This document shows, one piece after another, positions 1,658 to 20,470 of a stretch of DNA of 23,775 bases; position 1 is the first letter of the stretch, and every line of letters starts with the position of its first letter. Made by a program: the position numbers and the translations under genes. The notes below the pieces were generated by a model. The model saw only the letters and a program-made list of their open reading frames with translations, was not told where the DNA came from and did not search any database. The DNA comes from a virus (taxonomy: Duplodnaviria > Heunggongvirae > Uroviricota > Caudoviricetes). The stretch lies in the IMG/VR virus record IMGVR_UViG_2541047805_000001; one strand, written 5' to 3'.

Positions 1658-4129
1658 TTAAGAATCAGCCTGACTCGGGATCAGTTTTTGCCAGATAACT
1701 GAAACGTATTTTGCCTGGTAACGGGCGTCATCAAGTGCATTATGGCGCTCACCTTCGAATGGAATAGCCGTTCTGGCATCGAAGTCTATGGCTTTCCCCA
1801 GCTCAACGATTGTGCGTACATCGCGATCGTTGTAGTAACGCCACGGGCAGGGGATCCCCTGCCGTTCGTATGAACGGCGCAAAATCGTGTTGTCGAAGTT
1901 GGCTCCATTTCCCCAAACCTGAACAAAAAATTCACCGGAGTTTTCGTCGATAAATTCTCGCAATTGTAACAGTGCATCATCTAACGGGATTTCATCGGTC
2001 ATAATGGCAGATTGCGCTTCGCGTGATTGCTTAAGCCACCATTTAATGGTGTCCCGATCAATGACTCCGCCAGCAGTTTCCAGATCGATAGTCTTACTAA
2101 ATTCCGGTCCCATATCTCCGGTTTGCGGATCGAAAAATATTGCACCTATTGAGATGATCGGGGCATCAGGATTTTTTCCCATGGTTTCAAGGTCGATCAT
2201 TAGATGGTCACACGTCCTGCTGGTGGATGTGATTTCGTGATGACCGTTCACCTTAATTGGGTGATCTGCCGTCTCGCCAGTTTCATTATCGCTATTGTGA
2301 TGCTGATTGCCGCCAGTGTTCTCCTTGTGTGGATGTTCAGCGCCTTCCATTTCCTCCGGATCATCTTCCTGAACTTCAACCTGATACTCTTCATCGAATG
2401 TTTCTTGGTATGTTGCGTCGCCCATCACCGCGCCACAATCAGGGCAGTTGCCGCCGCCGGTCTGACCGCAGGCGGTGCAGACTTTTTCCACTTCCTGTTG
2501 CGCTACTGGTTCAGGCTGTTTCGTTTCTGGCTCGTTTTGTAACGCATTTGGACTGTTTTGTTCCGCTTTTTGGTAGTTCCGTTCCGATTCATGCTGGTTC
2601 TGGTTCACAGAATCGCGGGTCTGGAGCCCCTTAACCCATTTCGGATCATTCGGGTCACTAATCCCTTCAACAAATTCACCACGTGATGCAGCAAGCAACT
2701 TATCGGCGTCAGGCTGGCTGATATTGGCTGCCTGCATAATTTTGTTTACTTCGTCAGCGGTAACTTTTATCGGCTCTGGTTGTTCTGAATCTTCAGCGGT
2801 ATCTACATTTTGCGGTAAGCCCGTGTATGTGCCATTTTTTCGGGCAAAATATTCTTCTTTTGTGATTTCAGTGGCGCCAGCAGCCAGTGCCTTATCCAGA
2901 CCAGAGAGTTTGTTTGCGCGACCGTATTTTTCTCCGTCCTTATCTGCGAAGAGGAAATAGAACGGCCCCTCACGCTCTACAGATGGTTCAGCTTCCGGCG
3001 CGGTTTCATTTTTTGGGATATCAGATACCTCAGTTTCCACTGCATCAGTTTGTGTTTCTGATGACTGGAGAACATCAACAGTGCCCAGGTCTGTTTCTTC
3101 ATTCTCAAACACGCCCTTTGTCGTCAGGTATTCGCAGATATATTTGTTCAGTGCTACGGGATCTTTGTGAATGTCGATCGGACGCTCACGGACAAGGCCA
3201 AAAATAGTTTGGCGGTCGTAGCGAAGGGCATCAGGCTGTTTGCGCATTGATGCCGAGATACGCTTCCAGTCTTCGCGGTCGTTGTCGATAACTTCTTTTT
3301 TTGCCCAGCGATGGATGCTGCCGTCAATGTTTCCGGCATCCACATCACTAGGCCAGAGAGCGTAGGCCAGTTCGTCATCCAGTGTTTTCCATGTCTGCTT
3401 GTATTCGCGATGAATGGCAGCAATGACCGGGCTGATTTTTCCTGTTGAATTTTCAGTGTACTGTTGATTGGCTCTGGCGCGGGCGAGATCAACAACAGAC
3501 GTGTATTTTCCGGTTTCCTTGCGTTCACCTTCGCGACGTTTTTTCCAGATGCGCATCTCTGCCTGAATTTCGGGCCATTTAGCACCAGGAATACATTTAT
3601 GCTTAACCCACCCAATGGCGTGCAACTTAAGCTCCGGATACATGGCGTTAACTTCTGGCATTTTCATCAACGCTTCAACGATATGTCCGTCGAATGTTGC
3701 CATGTCTTCCTGCAACAATTCCTGTGCGCTAATAACCATATCAACGGTGATGTTTTCACATGTGTCGAACTTAACCATGACAGCGTTCTGTACTTCAGGG
3801 GCCAGCTTGTCAAAAGTGACGTTCATCGGATCGGATTCAGTCTCAACCGGGACAAAAGAAGCAGACTCCTCATCCCAGCGGTTTTCCTGCATATATTCAG
3901 CATCCCATGAATCGAGGGCAGGGCGGGGTATGCCAGGTTTATCCTCGCAGACAATAAATTTATAAGCGCAGTCCTGAGCAGCCGGATAATGTTCCAGGAA
4001 TTGCCAGTGAAATTTTGCTCGAGCACGGCGTTCGTCGCCAGCTTCAATGGCTGTGGCTACAGCCACAGCGCCTTCTTCCCTTGTTGCCAGTTCGTCAGGA
4101 ATAGCGGCGCAAATAAAGACTTTACTCAT
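1658..4129 (-). CDS. Large phage exonuclease annotated in databases as exodeoxyribonuclease VIII-like; C-terminal DEDDh (DnaQ-like) 3'-5' exonuclease domain
   Basis: ORF runs 1658..4165 with a TTG at 4165; ATG at 4129 (MSKVFICAA) has a GAGG about 9 nt upstream. C-terminus carries DnaQ-like motifs (HLMIDLETMG; HNALDDARYQ). Central acidic low-complexity region and a CxxC-x8-CxxC zinc ribbon (CTACGQTGGGNCPDCG). Occupies the position of the K-12 ydfE pseudogene. Confidence 0.8.
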   Translation of the reverse strand: MSKVFICAAIPDELATREEGAVAVATAIEAGDERRARAKFHWQFLEHYPAAQDCAYKFIVCEDKPGIPRPALDSWDAEYMQENRWDEESASFVPVETESDPMNVTFDKLAPEVQNAVMVKFDTCENITVDMVISAQELLQEDMATFDGHIVEALMKMPEVNAMYPELKLHAIGWVKHKCIPGAKWPEIQAEMRIWKKRREGERKETGKYTSVVDLARARANQQYTENSTGKISPVIAAIHREYKQTWKTLDDELAYALWPSDVDAGNIDGSIHRWAKKEVIDNDREDWKRISASMRKQPDALRYDRQTIFGLVRERPIDIHKDPVALNKYICEYLTTKGVFENEETDLGTVDVLQSSETQTDAVETEVSDIPKNETAPEAEPSVEREGPFYFLFADKDGEKYGRANKLSGLDKALAAGATEITKEEYFARKNGTYTGLPQNVDTAEDSEQPEPIKVTADEVNKIMQAANISQPDADKLLAASRGEFVEGISDPNDPKWVKGLQTRDSVNQNQHESERNYQKAEQNSPNALQNEPETKQPEPVAQQEVEKVCTACGQTGGGNCPDCGAVMGDATYQETFDEEYQVEVQEDDPEEMEGAEHPHKENTGGNQHHNSDNETGETADHPIKVNGHHEITSTSRTCDHLMIDLETMGKNPDAPIISIGAIFFDPQTGDMGPEFSKTIDLETAGGVIDRDTIKWWLKQSREAQSAIMTDEIPLDDALLQLREFIDENSGEFFVQVWGNGANFDNTILRRSYERQGIPCPWRYYNDRDVRTIVELGKAIDFDARTAIPFEGERHNALDDARYQAKYVSVIWQKLIPSQADS

Positions 4130-4221
4130 TTGTTTTAACCTCATGACAGATTTAAGGATGAACAAATCCCTGCCATTGCTGGCATATAAGAATGAAACCG
4201 GATATTTATTACGGAACTGTT

Positions 4222-4413
4222 TTAAAGACCTGCCGGGATTTCGATATTATCCTGGTGAATAACTTTATCGACCGGGTAACAGTTACCGGGAATTTTCTGT
4301 TCGGTTGCTGCAGTCATACACTCCTGCATTGTCCTGTGAACACTGACTGCAATATCAACTGGCTCTCCGGAAACAAGAAAAACTGTCAGAACAAGCACAA
4401 ATGCTGAATTCAT
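4222..4413 (-). CDS. ydfD: YdfD, small membrane lysis protein (63 aa)
   Basis: MNSAFVLVLTVFLVSGEP... has an N-terminal hydrophobic segment. Start overlaps dicB stop by 4 nt (translational coupling). Length and sequence match recalled Qin YdfD. Confidence 0.75.
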   Translation of the reverse strand: MNSAFVLVLTVFLVSGEPVDIAVSVHRTMQECMTAATEQKIPGNCYPVDKVIHQDNIEIPAGL

Positions 4414-4598
4414 TGTGCACATCCTTTTGGCATCAGACGTAAACGAGCCAGCATTGAAACAATGCATATTTTATTTAATAGCTCCCGTTCTTGTTTTCTC
4501 TTGTTAATGGCATCTTCAGTAAATACTGGGTTACTGATAGTGACACCAATTTCAAAACAACCTTCAGACGTATTAACGTTTGGTAATAACGTTTTCAT
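4410..4598 (-). CDS. dicB: DicB cell-division inhibitor (62 aa)
   Basis: MKTLLPNVNTSEGCFEIGVTISNPVFTEDAINKRKQERELLNKICIVSMLARLRLMPKGCAQ matches recalled DicB. Lies downstream of DicF in the operon. Confidence 0.85.
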   Translation of the reverse strand: MKTLLPNVNTSEGCFEIGVTISNPVFTEDAINKRKQERELLNKICIVSMLARLRLMPKGCAQ

Positions 4599-4767
4599 TA
4601 TCGCGTCCTCAACAATGAATTTTGTGATGCAGTGCCTGGTGCCTCCAGGTGACGTTAACCAGTTAACAATTAACGCCGGATACAGAGAATCCACCCATAA
4701 CACTGTTTTTGGTTTTAACTGTTCCGCGTGCGCTCAGCCGCATTCACCACATCACAAAATTCACTTT

Positions 4768-4825
4768 AAAAAGGGCGGCAGAGCAGTCACGGAGTAAAAC
4801 TGATACCGCCAAACGTCACCAGAAA
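4768..4825 (-). ncRNA. dicF: DicF small regulatory RNA (ftsZ-targeting), with its intrinsic terminator
   Basis: Minus-strand sequence UUUCUGGUGACGUUUGGCGGUAUCAGUUUUACUCCGUGACUGCUCUGCCGCCCUUUUU matches recalled DicF, including the GC-rich hairpin and U-run. Ends are approximate because DicF is processed from the operon transcript. Confidence 0.8.
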
Positions 4826-5165
4826 ATTGATAACAGAGGGCGTTGCAGCGGGGTTGTCACTTAAGCGTATGGTCAACCTGACAACCCGGTGTCCTCAACG
4901 GGGAAGGAATAACCCCGCCATACTTACCGCCGCGCCATTTCGCGGGTTGCCACAACCGGAAGCGCACGGTCGACGAAAATTTAACGACAGGCTATCTATG
5001 AACCAGCTACCTCGCCGTGCGCTTTCGCGTTATGGTCTGACTTTTCAGGGAAATATCCTTTCAGTAAACTGTCAGTTCCGGATGCGCACCCGTGTCCGGC
5101 GCACGCACTCCACCTCACCCGTGGAGAACTCCTTAATTACTAACCTTAGCTTTGTTGATTAGCTA

Positions 5166-5384
5166 CTAACGCGGGTATGTAATCATTCTGGCAATGCTTA
5201 ATGCCGCTGCTTTTTCCAGATTGGTGATATCCTGCTCCAGAGCGGACAGATTTTCAGCCTGCTTAGCCCTGGCTTCATTAGCCCATTTCAGATCCTGCGC
5301 TGCATTAATTTTCTGGCGCATCCACTCATAAAGTTCATCATCGGTATAGTCTGGCGCGATGATGACGGGTTCTCGTTTCTGCAT
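5166..5384 (-). CDS. ydfC: YdfC small protein (72 aa)
   Basis: 72-aa ORF MQKREPVIIAPDYTDDELYEWMRQ... at the expected position in the dicB operon. Confidence 0.7.
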   Translation of the reverse strand: MQKREPVIIAPDYTDDELYEWMRQKINAAQDLKWANEARAKQAENLSALEQDITNLEKAAALSIARMITYPR

Positions 5385-5413
5385 ACTGATTCCTCGCGGT
5401 GCTGTTTCGCTTA

Positions 5414-5542
5414 TCAGCCGTTAGATTTTGCCGAACTGGAAAGCGCCTGTTTAAACTCACTGAAGCTGAGAGCTTCTTCGCCTTCGGCAAGGCCTTCGAA
5501 GTATTCTTCGTAAGCCTTTTCCATGATTGTGTCGAAATCCAT
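5414..5542 (-). CDS. ydfB: YdfB small acidic protein (42 aa)
   Basis: Hand-translated from the minus strand: MDFDTIMEKAYEEYFEGLAEGEEALSFSEFKQALSSSAKSNG (42 aa). Start lies 2 nt after the ydfA stop. Below the ORF-track size cutoff. Confidence 0.6.
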   Translation of the reverse strand: MDFDTIMEKAYEEYFEGLAEGEEALSFSEFKQALSSSAKSNG

Positions 5543-5543
5543 A

Positions 5544-5699
5544 TCACTCACCTGAGTTTCTTTCCAGCCAGCGACGGGCACCATTTTCGGTTTTAAACGT
5601 TTTGCTTTTGGTATACGTCATTGCGGTGAACGTGCCGTCCTGGTTTGGAAACACGCCGTACACCAGAGATTCGTTGTTGCCAAGATCGATAGTATCCAT
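5544..5699 (-). CDS. ydfA: YdfA small protein (51 aa)
   Basis: Internal start of ORF 5544..5777 gives MDTIDLGNNESLVYGVFPNQDGTFTAMTYTKSKTFKTENGARRWLERNSGE (51 aa). First gene of the dicB operon, downstream of dicA. Confidence 0.65.
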   Translation of the reverse strand: MDTIDLGNNESLVYGVFPNQDGTFTAMTYTKSKTFKTENGARRWLERNSGE

Positions 5700-5779
5700 G
5701 CTGACCTCATTTCCCCTTAACGCTGGGGTAGCGGAACTGTTTGCTGAGAACACCGTGCGGTGTGTTGATGCAAACAAGA

Positions 5780-5831
5780 TTAGCCATGACTAACATATCG
5801 GTCAAGTGATTTTGTATGCTATAGCTAACAT
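5780..5831 (-). promoter_or_regulatory. Putative operator/promoter region of the dicB operon
   Basis: TTAGCCATGACTAACA (5780-5795) and TAGCTAACA (5822-5830) share the ATGACTAACA / GCTAACA core with the palindromes in the dicA-dicC intergenic region. Lies between dicA 3' end and ydfA start. Confidence 0.4.
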
Positions 5832-5865
5832 AATTGATGTGGTAAAAGATAACTCATTGATGATG

Positions 5866-6273
5866 TTATCTTTTATTTGTCCGCTGACGGGCTTTTAGTA
5901 ATTCTTCAAAGAGTTTATTGAAGTTTTTTACTCGAGCTCGCATTTCGGCGAGCTGGGTATCCTGTTCTGATTCTGGCAGTGCATTAAACAGCTCAAGGAG
6001 CTCTAGTTCTTTGGGGGATAAGGCAACTGGCTTCTCAACAGGTGGTGTTGGTTGCTTGTCTTCATCGCCAAATAGAATCCATGTTGGTGAGCATTGCAAT
6101 ACTTTGCTGAGGGCAAAAAGGTTCTTCCCTGTAGGTTCACTATCACCCCGTTCCCATTGTGATACAGACACATGGGAGATTTTCAGGGCTTTAGCAAGAG
6201 ACCTTTGGGTGTGTTTGAGGTTTTTCCGACGATACCTGATGCGTTCGCCGATAGTTAAATTTTTTGTTTCCAT
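5866..6273 (-). CDS. dicA: DicA, HTH (XRE-family) repressor (135 aa)
   Basis: METKNLTIGERIRYRRKNLKHTQRSLAKALKISHVSVSQWERG... has an N-terminal HTH. Divergent from dicC. Matches recalled DicA. Confidence 0.9.
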   Translation of the reverse strand: METKNLTIGERIRYRRKNLKHTQRSLAKALKISHVSVSQWERGDSEPTGKNLFALSKVLQCSPTWILFGDEDKQPTPPVEKPVALSPKELELLELFNALPESEQDTQLAEMRARVKNFNKLFEELLKARQRTNKR

Positions 6274-6356
6274 AGTTAGCTAATGCTAAATCGTATTGAC
6301 TATGTTTTTGTTAACATCTATCTTGTTAGTTATGACTAACAATAAAGGTGTTTTAA
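6274..6356. promoter_or_regulatory. dicA/dicC divergent promoter-operator region
   Basis: 83-bp intergenic region with perfect palindrome TTAGCTAA (6275-6288 context) and inverted repeat TGTTAGTtatgACTAACA (6324-6341). TTGACT-like -35 at 6295-6300. Confidence 0.55.
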
Positions 6357-6587
6357 ATGCTTAAAACTGACGCTCTTTTGTATTTCGGTTCAAAAACAAA
6401 ACTTGCACAAGCAGCAGGTATTCGTTTGGCTTCGCTTTATAGCTGGAAAGGGGATTTAGTTCCCGAAGGTCGCGCGATGCGTCTACAGGAGGCATCTGGC
6501 GGGGAGCTTCAGTATGATCCCAAAGTTTATGATGAATATCGTAAGACGAAGCGGGCGGGGCGGTTGAACAATGAAAATCACTCCTGA
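6357..6587 (+). CDS. dicC: DicC, Cro-like regulator (76 aa)
   Basis: MLKTDALLYFGSKTKLAQAAGIRLASLYSWKGDL..., 76 aa, divergent from dicA. Matches recalled DicC. Confidence 0.85.
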   Translation: MLKTDALLYFGSKTKLAQAAGIRLASLYSWKGDLVPEGRAMRLQEASGGELQYDPKVYDEYRKTKRAGRLNNENHS

Positions 6588-6972
6588 ACAGGCTCGTGAG
6601 GCTCTGGATGCCTGGATATGTCGACCAGGAATGACACAGGAGCAGGCGACGATATTAATCACTGAAGCATTCTGGGCTTTGAAAGAGCGCCCGAACATCG
6701 ATGTTCAGCGTGTCACATATGAAGGTGGCGCGATTGATCAGCGAGCGCTTGGCGTTAATCGAGTGAAGATATTTGAACGCTGGAAGGCTATCGACACCAG
6801 GGATAAGCGTGAAAAGTTCACGGCGCTAGTGCCTGCAATTATGGAGGCTAAAGACACTGGGCATCGAGCCAATCCATGCCAACAGCCCGCAGGCAAAAGG
6901 GCGGGTAGAGCGCGCCAATCAGACACTACAGGACAGGCTGGTCAAAGAAATGCGGCTTCAGAATATCAGTGA
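6571..6972 (+). CDS. ydfX: YdfX-like ORF whose 3' part runs out of frame into a transposase remnant
   Basis: Start overlaps the dicC stop. N-terminal ~95 aa look protein-like. After about 6860 the frame is an out-of-frame read of the transposase fragment. Confidence 0.35.
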   Translation: MKITPEQAREALDAWICRPGMTQEQATILITEAFWALKERPNIDVQRVTYEGGAIDQRALGVNRVKIFERWKAIDTRDKREKFTALVPAIMEAKDTGHRANPCQQPAGKRAGRARQSDTTGQAGQRNAASEYQ

Positions 6973-7492
6973 TATTGAAACAGCAAATGCATGGTTGCCG
7001 ACCTTTATTGAAGCCTATAACAACCGGTTCGCTACGTCGCCTCGTACTACTGATAATGCTCATCTTGATGTGCACCATTCTGAAGAGGAACTGGGTTATA
7101 TCTTCAGCCTACAGGCGAAGCGCGTTCTGTCTAAAAATCTCACTTTCCAGTACAAAAGCAGTGCGTTTCAGGTACGCAGTGAGGGCCGGGGATATCGACT
7201 TAGGCATTCGGTTGTTACTGTATGCGAGAACTTTGACGGTGAAATTAACGTTCTGTATGACGGGAAAGCGCTGGGCTGGGAAAAGTATGTTGATGGCCCG
7301 GAGCCTATACCACTGGATGATGAAAAGAGTGTCCATGAACGAGTGGATAATGCCCGTATTGATTTACGCTCAAAATACTATGTTAAACCTAAAGCTGACC
7401 ATCCCTGGCTTACGCGCCGAACGCAAAGTCATCAGCAAGTTAAGCCCCCGAAGTTACCTAAAAAGAAGCCTGATCCCGATAAAAAAGATTGA
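6860..7492 (+). pseudogene. C-terminal fragment of a DDE (rve-type) transposase/integrase; equivalent of K-12 intK/ydfW
   Basis: Frame-2 translation from about 6860 reads GIEPIHANSPQAKGRVERANQTLQDRLVKEMRL..., a conserved DDE-transposase motif. No N-terminal part or start codon. ORF 6950..7492 is the tail of this frame. Confidence 0.6.
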
Positions 7493-9763: not shown

Positions 9764-10015
9764 ATGATGAACATCGAAGAACTGCGTAAAATTTTTTGTG
9801 AAGATGGCCTCTATGCTGTGTGCGTTGAAAATGGAAATCTTGTTAGTCATTACCGCATTATGTGTTTGCGAAAGAATGGGGCTGCGTTAATTAATTTTGT
9901 GGATGCTCGGGTCACGGACGGATTTATCTTGCGCGAAGGTGAGTTTGTCACTTCATTACAGGCATTGAAAGAGATCGGAATAAAAGCTGGCTTTTCTGCT
10001 TTTTCAGGAGAATAA
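9764..10015 (+). CDS. rem: Rem (83 aa), function unknown
   Basis: MMNIEELRKIFCEDGLYAVCVENGNLVSHYRIMCLRKNGAALINFVDARV...; length and position match Qin rem. Confidence 0.75.
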   Translation: MMNIEELRKIFCEDGLYAVCVENGNLVSHYRIMCLRKNGAALINFVDARVTDGFILREGEFVTSLQALKEIGIKAGFSAFSGE

Positions 10016-12811: not shown

Positions 12812-13111
12812 AAAAATTCCTTAATACTGATAACTTGGCGCACTATACACACGTTCCTGAAGAAAGCTATAGTTTTTTGATGGGGTTGAAGATGGCTGGA
12901 TGTCTAAAATAAACATTGCTTCATATGTTCAACTATGCGTTAATGATTGCGTCGGTTTGAAGAACAGACGATATACGAAGTAGTTTACTAAAGCAGTTCT
13001 CATTTCAGGTGTTATTCACTTATTCCTTCTTTGAGTCTCTCCAATTAAGTACGAAGTCGTTTCTGTTATGCAAACCATTTATGCCGAAAGGCTCAAGTTA
13101 AGGAATGTAGA

Positions 13112-13327
13112 ATGTCAAATAAAATGACTGGTTTAGTAAAATGGTTTAACGCTGATAAAGGTTTCGGCTTTATTTCTCCTGTTGATGGTAGTAAAGATGT
13201 GTTTGTGCATTTTTCTGCGATTCAGAATGATAATTATCGAACCTTATTTGAAGGTCAAAAGGTTACCTTCTCTATAGAGAGTGGTGCTAAAGGTCCTGCA
13301 GCAGCAAATGTCATCATTACTGATTAA
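13112..13327 (+). CDS. cspB: Cold-shock protein CspB (71 aa)
   Basis: [71 protein letters not shown], with RNP1/RNP2 motifs. Long 5' leader upstream. Confidence 0.9.
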
Positions 13328-13607
13328 AATTCATCGCTCGTCTGTATACGATAACGAAGAAGGCTGATGCCTGAGTAGAGATACGGACAGAGTAGTGAAT
13401 ATTGGATTTCTTTAATAAAAATTAAGGAGGTCCAATACATGAAACAATGGCCAGCATATTTGGCAAAATCTTAATCAGGAAAAGTATGCTAACCATTGTG
13501 GTGAAGTGCAGGTTTGCTGCATGAATAGTTTTACAGCAGAAGCTAACTGCTGGCATGGCAAAACAAAGTGCGTAAGTGGATGACTCCCACAAAAAGCACC
13601 ACAATCT

Positions 13608-15636: not shown

Positions 15637-15999
15637 GGTAATATTAAATCGGAACATTTACATCGCGGAATGTAAAATTTAAATAAAAAGGACTCTTCCA
15701 TGAGCCAAAATTCCTGAAATCTTAAGGGTAAGATAAAAGGTCTTAATCAGAATGACACGTTATTATTAATAAATAAAGCTATTCTTTCATTGCTGTGTTT
15801 TTCTTTACAAAAGTAATCCTTGCTATGGGTGGTTAATCATGCGTTAATGGTGTTCTGGTTTGTTACAAATTTATCTGAAGCAGTCATTGTTATAATTTTA
15901 TTATTTGTACCTCTTGAGATTTCCTTGTTGGTTTTTCTCTCTGATATTTTTTTTCGGACCATTCTGCCCAAGGGCTAATTTCTTCAAAAGGTAATAATT

Positions 16000-16212
16000 A
16001 TGTCTAACAAAATGACTGGTTTAGTGAAATGGTTTAACCCTGAAAAAGGTTTTGGTTTCATCACGCCGAAAGATGGCAGCAAAGATGTGTTTGTCCATTT
16101 CTCAGCAATTCAGAGCAACGATTTCAAAACATTAACTGAGAATCAGGAAGTTGAATTTGGTATTGAGAACGGACCTAAAGGTCCTGCCGCTGTTCATGTA
16201 GTGGCGCTTTGA
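16000..16212 (+). CDS. cspI: Cold-shock protein CspI (70 aa)
   Basis: [70 protein letters not shown]. Confidence 0.9.
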
Positions 16213-16414
16213 GGTAGACAATATTACAAACCATATTCACTTTAGATGCCCGTGTTGTCATGGTTCCCAGTATAGAACATCATCTTTTGATGTTTCTGAC
16301 ATGAATCCTTTCGGGGCAAAATGTATCTTTTGTAAATCAATGATGATTACATTTGATAATATTTCACAATACTTAAATGCCAGCCGTCTGTCGTTGGATT
16401 TAAAAAAGTGAAAA

Positions 16415-19895: not shown

Positions 19896-20470
19896 TGGCA
19901 TTCAGAATGAGTGAACAACCACGGACCATAAAAATTTATAATCTGCTGGCCGGAACTAATGAATTTATTGGTGAAGGTGACGCATATATTCCGCCTCATA
20001 CAGGTCTGCCAGCAAACAGTACCGATATTGCACCGCCAGATATTCCGGCAGGCTTCGTGGCTGTTTTCAACAGTGATGAGGCATCGTGGCATCTCGTTGA
20101 AGATCATCGGGGTAAAACGGTTTATGACGTGGCTTCCGGCGACGCGTTATTTATTTCTGAACTCGGTCCGTTACCGGAAAATGTTACCTGGTTATCGCCG
20201 GAAGGGGAGTTTCAGAAGTGGAACGGCACAGCCTGGGTGAAAGATGCAGAAGCAGAAAAACTGTTCCGGATCCGAGAGGCGGAAGAAACAAAAAACAGCC
20301 TGATGCAGGTAGCCAGTGAGCATATTGCGCCACTTCAGGATGCTGTAGATCTGGAAATCGCAACGGAGGAAGAAACCTCATTGCTGGAAGCCTGGAAAAA
20401 GTATCGGGTGTTGCTGAACCGTGTTGATACGTCAACTGCACAGGATATTGAATGGCCAGCACTGCCGTAG
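19895..20470 (+). CDS. tfaQ: Tail fibre assembly protein (191 aa)
   Basis: Start overlaps the stfQ stop (TAATG). 191 aa, matching the Tfa family length and the position after stf. Confidence 0.8.

Follow-up and report, generated by a model that had tools for sequence, protein, structure and literature searches.

The closest described system is the dicA-dicC-dicB locus of the Qin (Kim) prophage of E. coli K-12, the subject of Bejar, Bouche and Bouche (1988), Yun et al. (2012) and Ragunathan et al. (2023). In this prophage, DicA represses dicC and also dicBp, the promoter ahead of ydfA, and acts at the operator Oc in vivo (PMC10448788, PMC3441716). Deletion of dicA raised dicBp activity 22-fold (PMC10448788), and a 10-fold fall in dicA mRNA was accompanied by a 3,700-fold rise in dicB mRNA (PMC3441716). 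DicA is relieved by the antirepressor Rem and not by RecA, with a 165-fold effect on dicBp; it contains no Ala-Gly bond, is not induced by mitomycin C, and its spontaneous switching is recA-independent (PMC10448788). A model of a single repressor acting on two promoters was already published by Bejar et al. (1988), a study to which both PMC10448788 and PMC3441716 refer. The DicA operator arrangement has been known since 1988, the concept is 35 years old, and its confirmation adds nothing new. In the published work that we found, the sites at dicBp were predicted only, and the Reg-Seq authors classed the DicA site for dicB as low-evidence, with the binding location unknown (PMC7567609). Our literature search, outside which the study of Bejar et al. 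(1988) fell, found no publication describing DicA bound at the dicBp region in vitro or by footprinting.

The stretch of DNA analysed here (23,775 nucleotides, referred to as the window) is a Qin-type cryptic prophage, and positions 5700-6360 are very probably its immunity switch. Positions 5400-6700 matched E. coli ATCC 8739 at 100% identity and K-12 strains at 99.9%; the locus is the same as that of Qin (99.9-100% identity), its Oc is identical to the tested operator, and no difference in kind was found. Some sequence match to 5400-6700 was present in about 3,800 of 5,426 complete genomes, most E. coli matches spanning positions 5700-5770 only, and this exact immunity type was found in about 750-840 of the 5,426. 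The dicA gene (5866-6273, minus strand), assigned by its ORF and by match to reference genomes, encodes a 135-aa repressor, and dicC (6357-6587, plus strand) encodes a 76-aa Cro-like regulator (Pfam P22_Cro, 1.7e-11). The two genes are divergent and separated by 83 bp, an arrangement shared by all related loci. The controlled dicBF operon (4410-5699, minus strand) comprises ydfA (5544-5699, ATG at 5699), ydfB, ydfC (5166-5384), the DicF RNA (4773-4824; Rfam DicF, 76.7 bits) and dicB, all read from the minus strand, the operon structure being taken from PMC10448788. The gene context given in the initial annotation (dicA, dicC and ydfA) was correct according to both ORFs and genome matches. The dicB gene is annotated at the equivalent position in a related locus (L003), and the ORF at 4410-4703 contains what we take to be the K-12 DicB sequence. 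A rem ORF (9764-10015, plus strand) is also present in the window.

Pfam searches assigned DicA to HTH families only (HTH_3, 1.3e-16; Phage_CI_repr, 7.5e-6), with no peptidase or autocleavage domain found in its 135 residues, and its N-terminal domain aligned over approximately 65 residues with the P22 C2 repressor structures 1adr and 2r1j (E = 8e-20). DicA stands outside the SOS-inducible CI/C2/LexA-type repressors, which combine an HTH domain with an S24 peptidase, and may belong with the non-cleavable prophage repressors that a small prophage-encoded antirepressor inactivates (Gifsy-type logic). The locus resembles P22 immC (C2, Cro, OR, OL) in the DNA-binding domain of the repressor, the P22_Cro-like DicC, the divergent genes and the placement of operators at both the rightward and the leftward early promoter. 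The Qin operators are 18 bp long with a 7-4-7 layout, as are those of P22. In contrast, C2 has 216 aa versus the 135 aa of DicA, which lacks the autocleavage domain, the P22 half-site sequence is unlike that of Qin, and P22 has three plus three operators, whereas Qin has a strong site flanked by a pair of weak ones on the right and only two sites on the left.

Lambda CI/Cro (OR1-3, OL1-3) is alike in that the repressor and a Cro-like antagonist use shared operators (probably so in Qin) at a divergent promoter pair and at a leftward early promoter. Further likenesses are the leaderless repressor mRNA (dicA: PMC4681348), activation by the repressor of its own gene (DicA: PMC3441716) and bistable behaviour (Qin: PMC10448788). 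However, operator length and sequence differ, and the lambda OL spacing is 24 bp, whereas the two left sites of Qin lie 35-36 bp apart and straddle the -35 element. The analogy with lambda OR/OL drawn in the initial annotation held for the logic of the switch but not for its induction, as the 135-aa DicA has no peptidase and RecA-dependent cleavage is replaced by the antirepressor Rem, urea or heat (PMC10448788). The Rac RacR/YdaS and other DicA-like modules (PPompW and Stx2a phages; Citrobacter, Enterobacter, Symbiopectobacterium and Rahnella prophages) share the gene order, the promoter and operator layout and the 135-aa class of repressor with a conserved C-terminal half. Their recognition-helix region and operator half-sites differ from those of Qin, and separate immunity groups were defined accordingly. 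The region displays three features of lambdoid immunity regions: a divergent repressor/cro-like pair, an HTH repressor with a Cro-like partner, and a second set of sites sharing the half-site at the leftward promoter.

Operators and promoters between dicA and dicC

The main DicA operator, Oc (6324-6341; TGTTAGTTATGACTAACA), is a perfect 18-bp palindrome (TGTTAGT-TATG-ACTAACA, 7-4-7) which spans the last base of the dicCp -10 element and the dicC transcription start. The PR-like dicCp (6296-6324, plus strand) is composed of TTGACT (6296-6301), a 17-nt spacer and TATCTT (6319-6324). It was the sole sigma-70-like match across 5100-6700 in a consensus scan, and its -35 element is kept in nearly all of the 13 immunity groups described below; Yun et al. 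marked the dicC -35/-10 and +1 beside Oc (PMC3441716). The reverse complement of Oc with one flanking base per side corresponds to the 20-nt TTGTTAGTCATAACTAACAA, the Oc that was tested in vivo by Yun et al. In that assay DicA acted on Oc, and a single A-to-C change abolished repression (Yun et al. 2012, PMC3441716). High-copy clones of the dicA-dicC intergenic region were viable only when Oc was mutated, because intact clones titrate DicA and release dicB (PMC3441716).

Two weaker sites are evenly placed beside Oc, with Om 25 bp from Oc and 25 bp from Oa; over the 14 outer positions of Oc, the right side scores 14/14 for Oc, 9/14 for Oa and 8/14 for Om. The middle site, Om (6299-6316; ACTATGTTTTTGTTAACA), lies in the dicCp spacer, where other immunity groups carry a half-site of their own directly adjoining the cro -35. 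Oa (6274-6291; AGTTAGCTAATGCTAAAT) adjoins the dicA ATG. Binding of DicA in vivo was reported absent by Yun et al. for Oa, and the same was reported for Om (PMC3441716). The likely dicAp -10 element, TAGCAT (6288-6283 on the minus strand), is included in Oa, and Oa also overlaps the start of the dicA mRNA. The dicA mRNA is leaderless, with a leader of less than 10 nt (PMC4681348), and the -10 element must therefore lie within Oa; a -10-like hexamer was found 8-9 nt upstream of the repressor ATG in most immunity groups. ChIP-seq of DicC has revealed binding on either side of dicA, with the motif TT(A/C/T)G...C(G/A/T)AA (PMC11430063), and the operator sites are probably common to DicA and the Cro-like DicC. 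When Oa was compared with DicC type versus repressor type, the two could not be separated, because the repressor and cro subfamilies co-vary phylogenetically.

Candidate operators at the dicB promoter

The sites downstream of dicA are two 18-bp imperfect palindromes, OL1 and OL2, read on the minus strand. OL1 (5813-5830; TGTTAGC-TATA-GCATACA, 10/14 to Oc) lies directly upstream of the predicted dicBp -35 element, while OL2 (5778-5795; TGTTAGT-CATG-GCTAATC, 11/14 to Oc) fills the predicted spacer and overlaps the -10; a repeat search identified the OL2 region as 14/16 identical to Oc. All the motifs quoted in the initial annotation were recovered at or next to the places it had given, TGTTAGTTATGACTAACA (6324-6341) as Oc, TTAGCTAA (6276-6283) in Oa, TTAGCCATGACTAACA (5780-5795) in OL2 and TAGCTAACA (5822-5830) in OL1. 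The predicted PL-like dicBp (5777-5805, minus strand) reads towards ydfA and is composed of TTGACC (5805-5800), a 17-nt spacer and TAATCT (5782-5777), with a start near 5769 inferred from sequence. This promoter fell below the threshold of the consensus scan, its -10 matching the consensus at 3/6 positions, and the layout of a -35 element, 17-18 nt and TAAATT/TAATCT recurs in other immunity groups. The left side comprises these two sites only, both with the exact TGTTAG half-site. A third left operator at 5759-5776 (TGTTTGCATCAACACACC, 9/14) was considered but discarded, as the TGTTTG in it is variable among Qin-group loci and the remainder belongs to the leader common to all immunity groups.

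This ydfA leader (5700-5769, minus strand), the stretch of the dicBF operon that is transcribed first from the predicted start, is nearly identical among heteroimmune prophages, the homology starting approximately at the predicted dicBp start. As a structured nut/put-like RNA, the leader gave no Rfam match, its folding energy was not better than that of shuffled sequences (z = 0.34), and RNAalifold found no compensatory pairs. On the other side of dicBp, a terminator-like hairpin (5843-5875, minus strand) with perfect 11-nt arms overlaps the dicA stop codon; its RNA fold has an energy of -11.4 kcal/mol (z = -7.4), and the stem is preserved in two related loci (L002 and L033) despite changes in both arms. 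The hairpin probably shields dicBp from dicA read-through.

The half-site search across the 23.8-kb window suggested in the initial annotation yielded four occurrences of the ACTAACA 7-mer against 2.6 expected, which was not significant, with three of the four within 5700-6360. The fourth (9841-9847) was rejected as an operator, being a lone half-site without a partner inside the rem coding sequence. TGTTAG was present at chance level, sites matching at least 10/14 of the outer positions of Oc numbered nine (8.6 expected), and 13% of random windows contained two such sites at 18-60 bp from each other. The pattern TTAG-N6-CTAA was found exactly three times in 23.8 kb (0.27 expected; 1 of 100 shuffles reached three), at 5780-5793, 6276-6289 and 6326-6339, all within the region; it was picked after the data had been seen, and it agrees with the independently published DicC ChIP-seq motif (PMC11430063). 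The window statistics are suggestive only and too weak alone to carry an operator claim. The sites are real on the basis of their position on promoters and their covariation across phages.

Comparison across DicA-like immunity groups

The comparative set consisted of 13 heteroimmune groups of DicA-like repressors, obtained from 27 loci. In some loci, automatic choice of the best palindrome within 100 nt of the repressor on its upstream side picked one that lay across the cro start codon, and the choice was therefore restricted to palindromes centred 57-59 nt upstream of the repressor ATG. This palindrome matched the region downstream of its own repressor with a mean of 11.3/14, compared to 9.3/14 for the regions of other groups, and none of 50,000 permuted pairings of the 13 groups reached the observed score. 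Shared 7-mers averaged 9.1 within the own locus versus 4.0 with others (0 of 20,000 permutations), and two control regions revealed no own-locus effect (permutation fractions of 0.25-0.96). The 13 groups are not phylogenetically independent; kinship of loci does not explain the likeness of two non-homologous regions within one locus.

The half-site differs between the groups, yet within a group the repressor/cro intergenic region shares it with the stretch downstream of the repressor gene. Half-sites present at both places were TGTTAGT (Qin), TGTTAGA/G (Rac-like), CCTTAGG (PPompW phages), ATTGAG, TGTTGAG and ATAAC. The second site, whose absence from related prophages the initial annotation had named as counter-evidence, was present in all 13 groups, its half-site changing in step with the first. 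The position and the group-specific left half-site of OL2 are conserved in the 13 groups, and an OL1-like site with the group-specific half-site occupies the same place in at least 10 of them and is perfectly palindromic in several. In 10/13 groups, the two downstream sites with the best match lie 34-36 bp apart and flank the -35 element. Within the seven loci of the Qin group, the outer TGTTAG/CTAACA of Oc is invariant while the central bases vary. As judged from these alignments, the conserved recognition core is TGTTAG-N6-CTAACA. The ACTAACA core proposed earlier was accordingly retained in its CTAACA part; its first A (position 7) varies within the Qin immunity group.

We considered it unlikely, on balance, that OL2 works alone in this Qin copy, with OL1 a decayed remnant and dicBp simply occluded by a single dimer, with no cooperativity. 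The Qin prophage is defective, and its OL1 looks degraded: the right half, GCATACA, has 4/7 matches, one of the mismatches falling where a mutation inactivates Oc, while in Rac-like, Citrobacter and Superficieibacter relatives the OL1 palindrome is perfect or nearly so. However, the OL1 left half (ATGTTAG) and the flanking A-tract are invariant in seven Qin-group loci despite differences elsewhere, 10/13 groups retain the 34-36 bp spacing, and the response of dicB mRNA to the loss of dicA mRNA is very steep (PMC3441716).

There is only a slim probability that the downstream sites are mainly sites of the Cro-like DicC, DicA repressing dicBp indirectly by keeping DicC or another factor off or by control of read-through. 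DicC was bound on both sides of dicA in ChIP-seq, with a core TTAG...CTAA matching both OL2 and Oa (PMC11430063), the literature found contains no report of direct DicA binding at dicBp, and Oa, which is like OL2 in its right half, was not bound by DicA in vivo (PMC3441716). Against this, plasmids bearing Oc titrate the factor that silences dicB (PMC3441716), and the left half-sites of OL1 and OL2 are the exact Oc half-site, TGTTAG, which tracks Oc across the immunity groups. Chance, or a by-product of AT-rich promoters without regulatory meaning, would fit the ACTAACA, TGTTAG and 10/14 counts and the frequency of close pairs in random windows, but is effectively refuted by the 13-group covariation test with its negative controls, by the published genetics (PMC10448788, PMC3441716) and by the different positions of the sites relative to the -35/-10 elements at the two promoters, for which reason shared promoter ancestry is no explanation either.

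A proposed model of the DicA switch

Direct control by DicA through Oc and the pair OL1/OL2, silencing dicC and ydfABC-dicF-dicB, is very likely the correct overall picture. DicA, a P22 C2-like helix-turn-helix repressor, would occupy, as a dimer, 18-bp sites that have TGTTAG-N6-CTAACA as their core. On Oc, over the -10/+1 of dicCp, it would block dicC transcription and stimulate the leaderless dicA transcript. On OL1 and OL2, which bracket the dicBp -35 element, OL1 lying 35 bp upstream of OL2 and OL2 lying in the spacer and overlapping the -10, it would exclude RNA polymerase and in this way silence ydfABC-dicF-dicB. We infer that this binding is direct. OL1 (10/14) and OL2 (11/14) score barely above Oa (9/14), which was reported unbound in vivo, and binding to a single site may therefore be weak. 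In each OL site a good half-site is paired with a poor one, so that two dimers probably have to bind cooperatively for the sites to be occupied. The Cro-like DicC most likely acts at these sites or at sites that overlap them, among them Oa on the dicA promoter, and would thereby shut off dicA. The claim that a single repressor controls both the dicA/dicC promoters and that of the growth-inhibitory operon is supported by genetics and covariation, except that one of the motifs cited for it, TTAGCTAA, belongs to Oa, which is reported not to be bound by DicA.

A more tentative extension, which we regard as rather improbable, is that OL1, OL2 and Oc, 546 bp away, form one cooperative unit in which DicA dimers are joined via the conserved C-terminal half, possibly looping out dicA; Oa would then be chiefly the dicA core promoter and a DicC-preferred site, not a DicA operator. 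If true, this arrangement would account for the very steep response, a 3,700-fold rise of dicB mRNA upon a 10-fold drop in dicA mRNA, and would make dicA autoregulation dependent on the left operators, as in the OL-OR octamerisation of lambda, with a much smaller, non-cleavable repressor than that of lambda. What the analysis adds to the established scheme is a prediction of the dicBp operators to the base, with OL1 and OL2 placed relative to the predicted -35/-10 elements and supported by the comparison of 13 immunity groups; in curated resources these operators are still listed without a location. The DicA-like family provides 13 or more natural variants of a single repressor scaffold that differ in specificity, each with its matched operators, and these may be of use in specificity studies or as orthogonal repressor/operator parts.

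Genes of the immunity region

The segment 5400-6700 matched E. coli ATCC 8739 with 100% identity and K-12 derivatives with 99.9%; in the latter, the equivalent stretch is annotated as dicA, dicC, ydfA and ydfB, and the ORFs of the window agreed with this. From the ORFs and the annotated matches, dicA was placed at 5866-6273 (− strand), dicC at 6357-6587 (+) and the ATG of ydfA at 5699 (−), while ydfC was assigned as an ORF at 5166-5384 (−). The candidate dicB ORF (4410-4703, −) contains what we take to be the DicB sequence, and dicB is annotated at the same position in L003, one of the collected DicA-like loci. DicF RNA was matched by Rfam at 4773-4824 (−). This is the Qin dicA/dicC/dicB locus itself, the immunity-like region of that cryptic prophage; DicA is a P22 C2-type HTH protein acting at the operator Oc.

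An 835-aa ORF without interruption (1658-4165, −) was found downstream of the dicB operon, at a position where K-12 presumably carries ydfE, insD and intQ fragments. The gene following dicC, in the 6571-7492 (+) stretch, belonged to the YdaT/YdfX family (weak Pfam YdaT_toxin match) and ran into unrelated sequence from approximately 6860, with an integrase/transposase-like ORF at 6950-7492 (+) beyond the break. Relatives carried a full ydaT-like gene and replication genes at the matching position, and the broken gene is consistent with a defective prophage. Elsewhere, Rfam matches at the gathering level (12951-13343, 15854-16239 and 20238-20436, +) corresponded to two cspA-type thermoregulator leaders and an IS009 RNA; the two leaders agree with the cspB, cspF and cspI genes that Qin presumably carries. 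An 83-aa ORF at 9764-10015 (+) lay where rem is expected; the antirepressor Rem has been reported to lift repression by DicA (PMC10448788).

Operator-like sites and promoters

All four motifs quoted in the initial annotation were found in the window. The perfect 7-4-7 palindrome TGTTAGTTATGACTAACA (Oc) was located at 6324-6341, and a repeat search placed TTAGCCATGACTAACA, identical to it at 14 of 16 positions, at 5780-5795; string searches located TAGCTAACA at 5822-5830 and TTAGCTAA at 6276-6283. The sites downstream of dicA resolved into two 18-mers on the minus strand, the direction of dicA and ydfA: OL1 (5830 down to 5813, TGTTAGC-TATA-GCATACA) and OL2 (5795 down to 5778, TGTTAGT-CATG-GCTAATC), matching Oc at 10 and 11 of its 14 outer positions, respectively. 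Shared sites barely exceeded chance within the window, with 4 ACTAACA (2.6 expected), 8 TGTTAG (10.3 expected) and 9 Oc-like 18-mers of at least 10/14 (8.6 expected), a close pair of which occurred in 13% of random windows. TTAG-N6-CTAA was found exactly three times, always inside the region (0.27 expected; three reached in 1/100 shuffles). The positions of the sites and their behaviour in relatives outweigh these counts. The fourth ACTAACA/TGTTAGT (9841-9847), considered as an operator, lies inside the 9764-10015 ORF without a partner half-site and was taken as a chance match.

On the right side, the sole consensus promoter match of the promoter scan was TTGACT (6296), 17 nt and TATCTT on the plus strand; as this dicC −10 ends at 6324, its final base is also the first of Oc, which extends over the start site. 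Two weaker sites, Om (6299-6316, 8/14) and Oa (6274-6291, 9/14, abutting the dicA ATG), were spaced from Oc in exact 25-bp steps. The 20-nt Oc cloned by Yun et al. 2012 (PMC3441716), which conferred DicA-dependent repression in vivo that was lost with one A-to-C change, is the reverse complement of 6323-6342. In the same study, DicA did not bind Om or Oa, and DicA at Oc activated dicA; TTAGCTAA, proposed as a DicA site, is present, within Oa, but falls where DicA is reported not to bind. The dicA and racR mRNAs have been reported as leaderless (Romero et al., PMC4681348), which places the dicA −10 inside Oa. In most of 13 immunity groups, a −10-like hexamer (TAGCAT, TAGAAT or TAAGAT) preceding the repressor ATG by 8-9 nt fits these reports; DicA-like modules as a family appear to express their repressors from leaderless mRNAs. 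DicC would shut off dicA from Oa, on the dicA −10 and start, as Cro does at lambda OR3.

On the left side, the minus strand carried, in order, OL1, AAATCAC, TTGACC (5805-5800), a 17-nt spacer and TAATCT (5782-5777). OL1 ended 7 bp from the −35, and OL2, starting 35 bp after the start of OL1, filled the spacer and overlapped the first five −10 bases. The predicted dicBp start lies near 5769, which would give a 70-nt ydfA leader. This promoter was below the threshold of the promoter scan, with a weak −10 (3/6), and was assigned because its layout is conserved in relatives and the literature places dicBp upstream of ydfA (PMC10448788). Between dicA and dicBp, a hairpin at 5843-5875 (−) with perfect 11-nt arms overlapped the dicA stop codon (−11.4 kcal/mol, z = −7.4) and was flanked by a 5' A-run and a 3' U-run, like a bidirectional terminator. 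Its inner stem was kept in loci L002 and L033 despite changes on both arms, and its probable role is to insulate dicBp from transcription of dicA.

The ydfA leader (5700-5770, −) was almost identical in prophages with a completely different repressor, cro and operators (equivalents in L001-L027). Most E. coli matches to 5700-5870 spanned only 5700-5770, which marks a mosaic joint at about the predicted dicBp start, and more distant loci kept a CACCG..CGGTG-type hairpin and the GTTCCGCT motif in the leader. The leader had no Rfam match, folded no better than shuffled sequences (z = 0.34) and showed no compensatory pairs in RNAalifold; a nut/put-like or protein-binding role is compatible with these results.

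Half-sites across immunity groups

DicA-like loci were drawn from E. coli genomes, phage records and other Enterobacterales, and their repressors were sorted by the first 60 residues into 13 groups, which share ancestry. Gene order was the same in all collected loci (DUF1391 or other small genes, a ~135-aa repressor and a divergent cro-like gene), and the C-terminal halves of six aligned repressors were highly conserved. The palindrome whose centre lies 57-59 nt before the repressor ATG varied by group, and its half-site recurred downstream of the repressor. In the Qin group, Oc (TGTTAGT...ACTAACA) was accompanied by OL1 (TGTTAGC...) and OL2 (TGTTAGT...). The corresponding Oc, OL1 and OL2 were TGTTAGAAAAGTCTAACA, TGTTAGACTAATCTAACA and TGTTAGGTTATTCTAAAT in the Rac-like group, CCTTAGGAAAATCTAAGG, GCTTAGGTTTTTCTACAC and TCTTAGGCTATTCTAAAT in PPompW/Stx2a phages, and ATTGAGAAAACTCAAT, ACTTGAGTTTTCTCATCA and TAATGAGAAAACTAAATT in a fourth E. 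coli group; TGTTGAG half-site types were found in Citrobacter braakii and Superficieibacter, and ATAAC types in locus L025. Across the 13 groups, with their shared ancestry, the best Oc match averaged 11.3/14 in a group's own downstream region versus 9.3/14 in those of other groups, and none of 50,000 permuted pairings reached the observed sum. Consistently, shared 7-mers numbered 9.1 for the own locus versus 4.0 for others (0/20,000 permutations). Two control regions of 200 nt each, one located further downstream and one within the repressor coding sequence, gave no own-locus excess, with permutation fractions of 0.25-0.96.

The two best downstream sites were 34-36 bp apart and bracketed a TTGnCn −35 in 10 of the 13 groups, the second overlapping a TAAATT/TAATCT −10. 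Absence of the second site from related prophages would have refuted the initial annotation; the site was present in the 13 groups, each time with the half-site of its own group. Since the operator lies within the spacer of the left promoter but beyond the −10 of the right one, the similarity of the two is not inherited promoter homology. In the seven loci of the Qin group, which are 89-100% identical, the outer TGTTAG and CTAA(CA) were invariant, whereas variation was seen at the six central bases and in the flanks, so that the recognition core comprises 6+6 bases around a variable centre. The operator palindromes described initially stand at both places; the core is this 6+6 arrangement rather than the 7-mer ACTAACA.

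The immunity region was also found, 99.8% identical over 1.3 kb, in a phage record (PV340562.1, 6446-7746; Escherichia phage PhiR42_1, 48.7 kb, E. coli ECOR13), where it is annotated as cI/Cro/cII; the Qin immunity type may still be used by a complete phage. Contigs bearing E. coli-type DicA loci occurred in metagenome-assembled genomes labelled Collinsella, Bacillota and Veillonella parvula (L011, L021 and L022). The L011 repressor was 99% identical to DicA, and that of L021 and L022 was the repressor of the fourth E. coli group; these contigs are most likely mis-binned Enterobacteriaceae DNA.

Control of dicB by DicA

Published genetics shows that the same factor pool controls dicB. A dicBp-lacZ fusion was derepressed 22-fold in a dicA deletion and not in a dicC deletion; its repression was relieved by the antirepressor Rem, there was no SOS induction, and bistable behaviour dependent on DicC was seen (Ragunathan et al. 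2023, PMC10448788, which also summarises Bejar et al. 1988 on this locus). High-copy clones of the intergenic region survived only if Oc was mutated, since they otherwise titrate DicA and so release dicB (Yun et al. 2012, PMC3441716). Mapped direct DicA binding at dicBp was not found in the literature covered, in which Bejar et al. 1988 was represented by later citations, and the Reg-Seq paper lists the DicA site for dicB as low-evidence with location unknown (PMC7567609). At the core promoter of dicB, the left sites repeat the half-sites specific to each group. RNA polymerase would be occluded by DicA dimers centred at approximately −17.5 (OL2) and −52.5 (OL1). In both left sites, an exact half-site is paired with a poor one; the right half of OL2 doubles as the −10 and is similar in all groups. 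For this reason binding is probably cooperative, which fits the steep response whereby 10-fold less dicA mRNA gave 3,700-fold more dicB mRNA (Yun et al. 2012, PMC3441716). From centre to centre (5787 to 6333), OL2 and Oc lie 546 bp apart, approximately 52.0 helical turns if each turn takes 10.5 bp; this distance is not kept in other groups, because the gap from the repressor stop to OL varies, so the integer value may be a coincidence.

The switch logic is that of lambda and P22 OR/OL, and P22 C2/Cro are closest in sequence to DicA/DicC. Unlike the SOS-cleavable repressors, DicA has no S24 domain (Pfam), and induction occurs by antirepressor, urea or heat (PMC10448788). The left operator set has two sites, not three, and the right set one strong site. 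The finding is correct and was already known; the proposal that a single repressor, DicA, controls the dicA/dicC promoters and that of the growth-inhibitory operon, analogous to lambda OR/OL, is supported by published genetics (PMC10448788, PMC3441716) together with the half-site comparison. What the analysis adds is a precise position for each predicted dicBp operator, backed by the comparison across groups, together with a catalogue of naturally occurring specificity variants.
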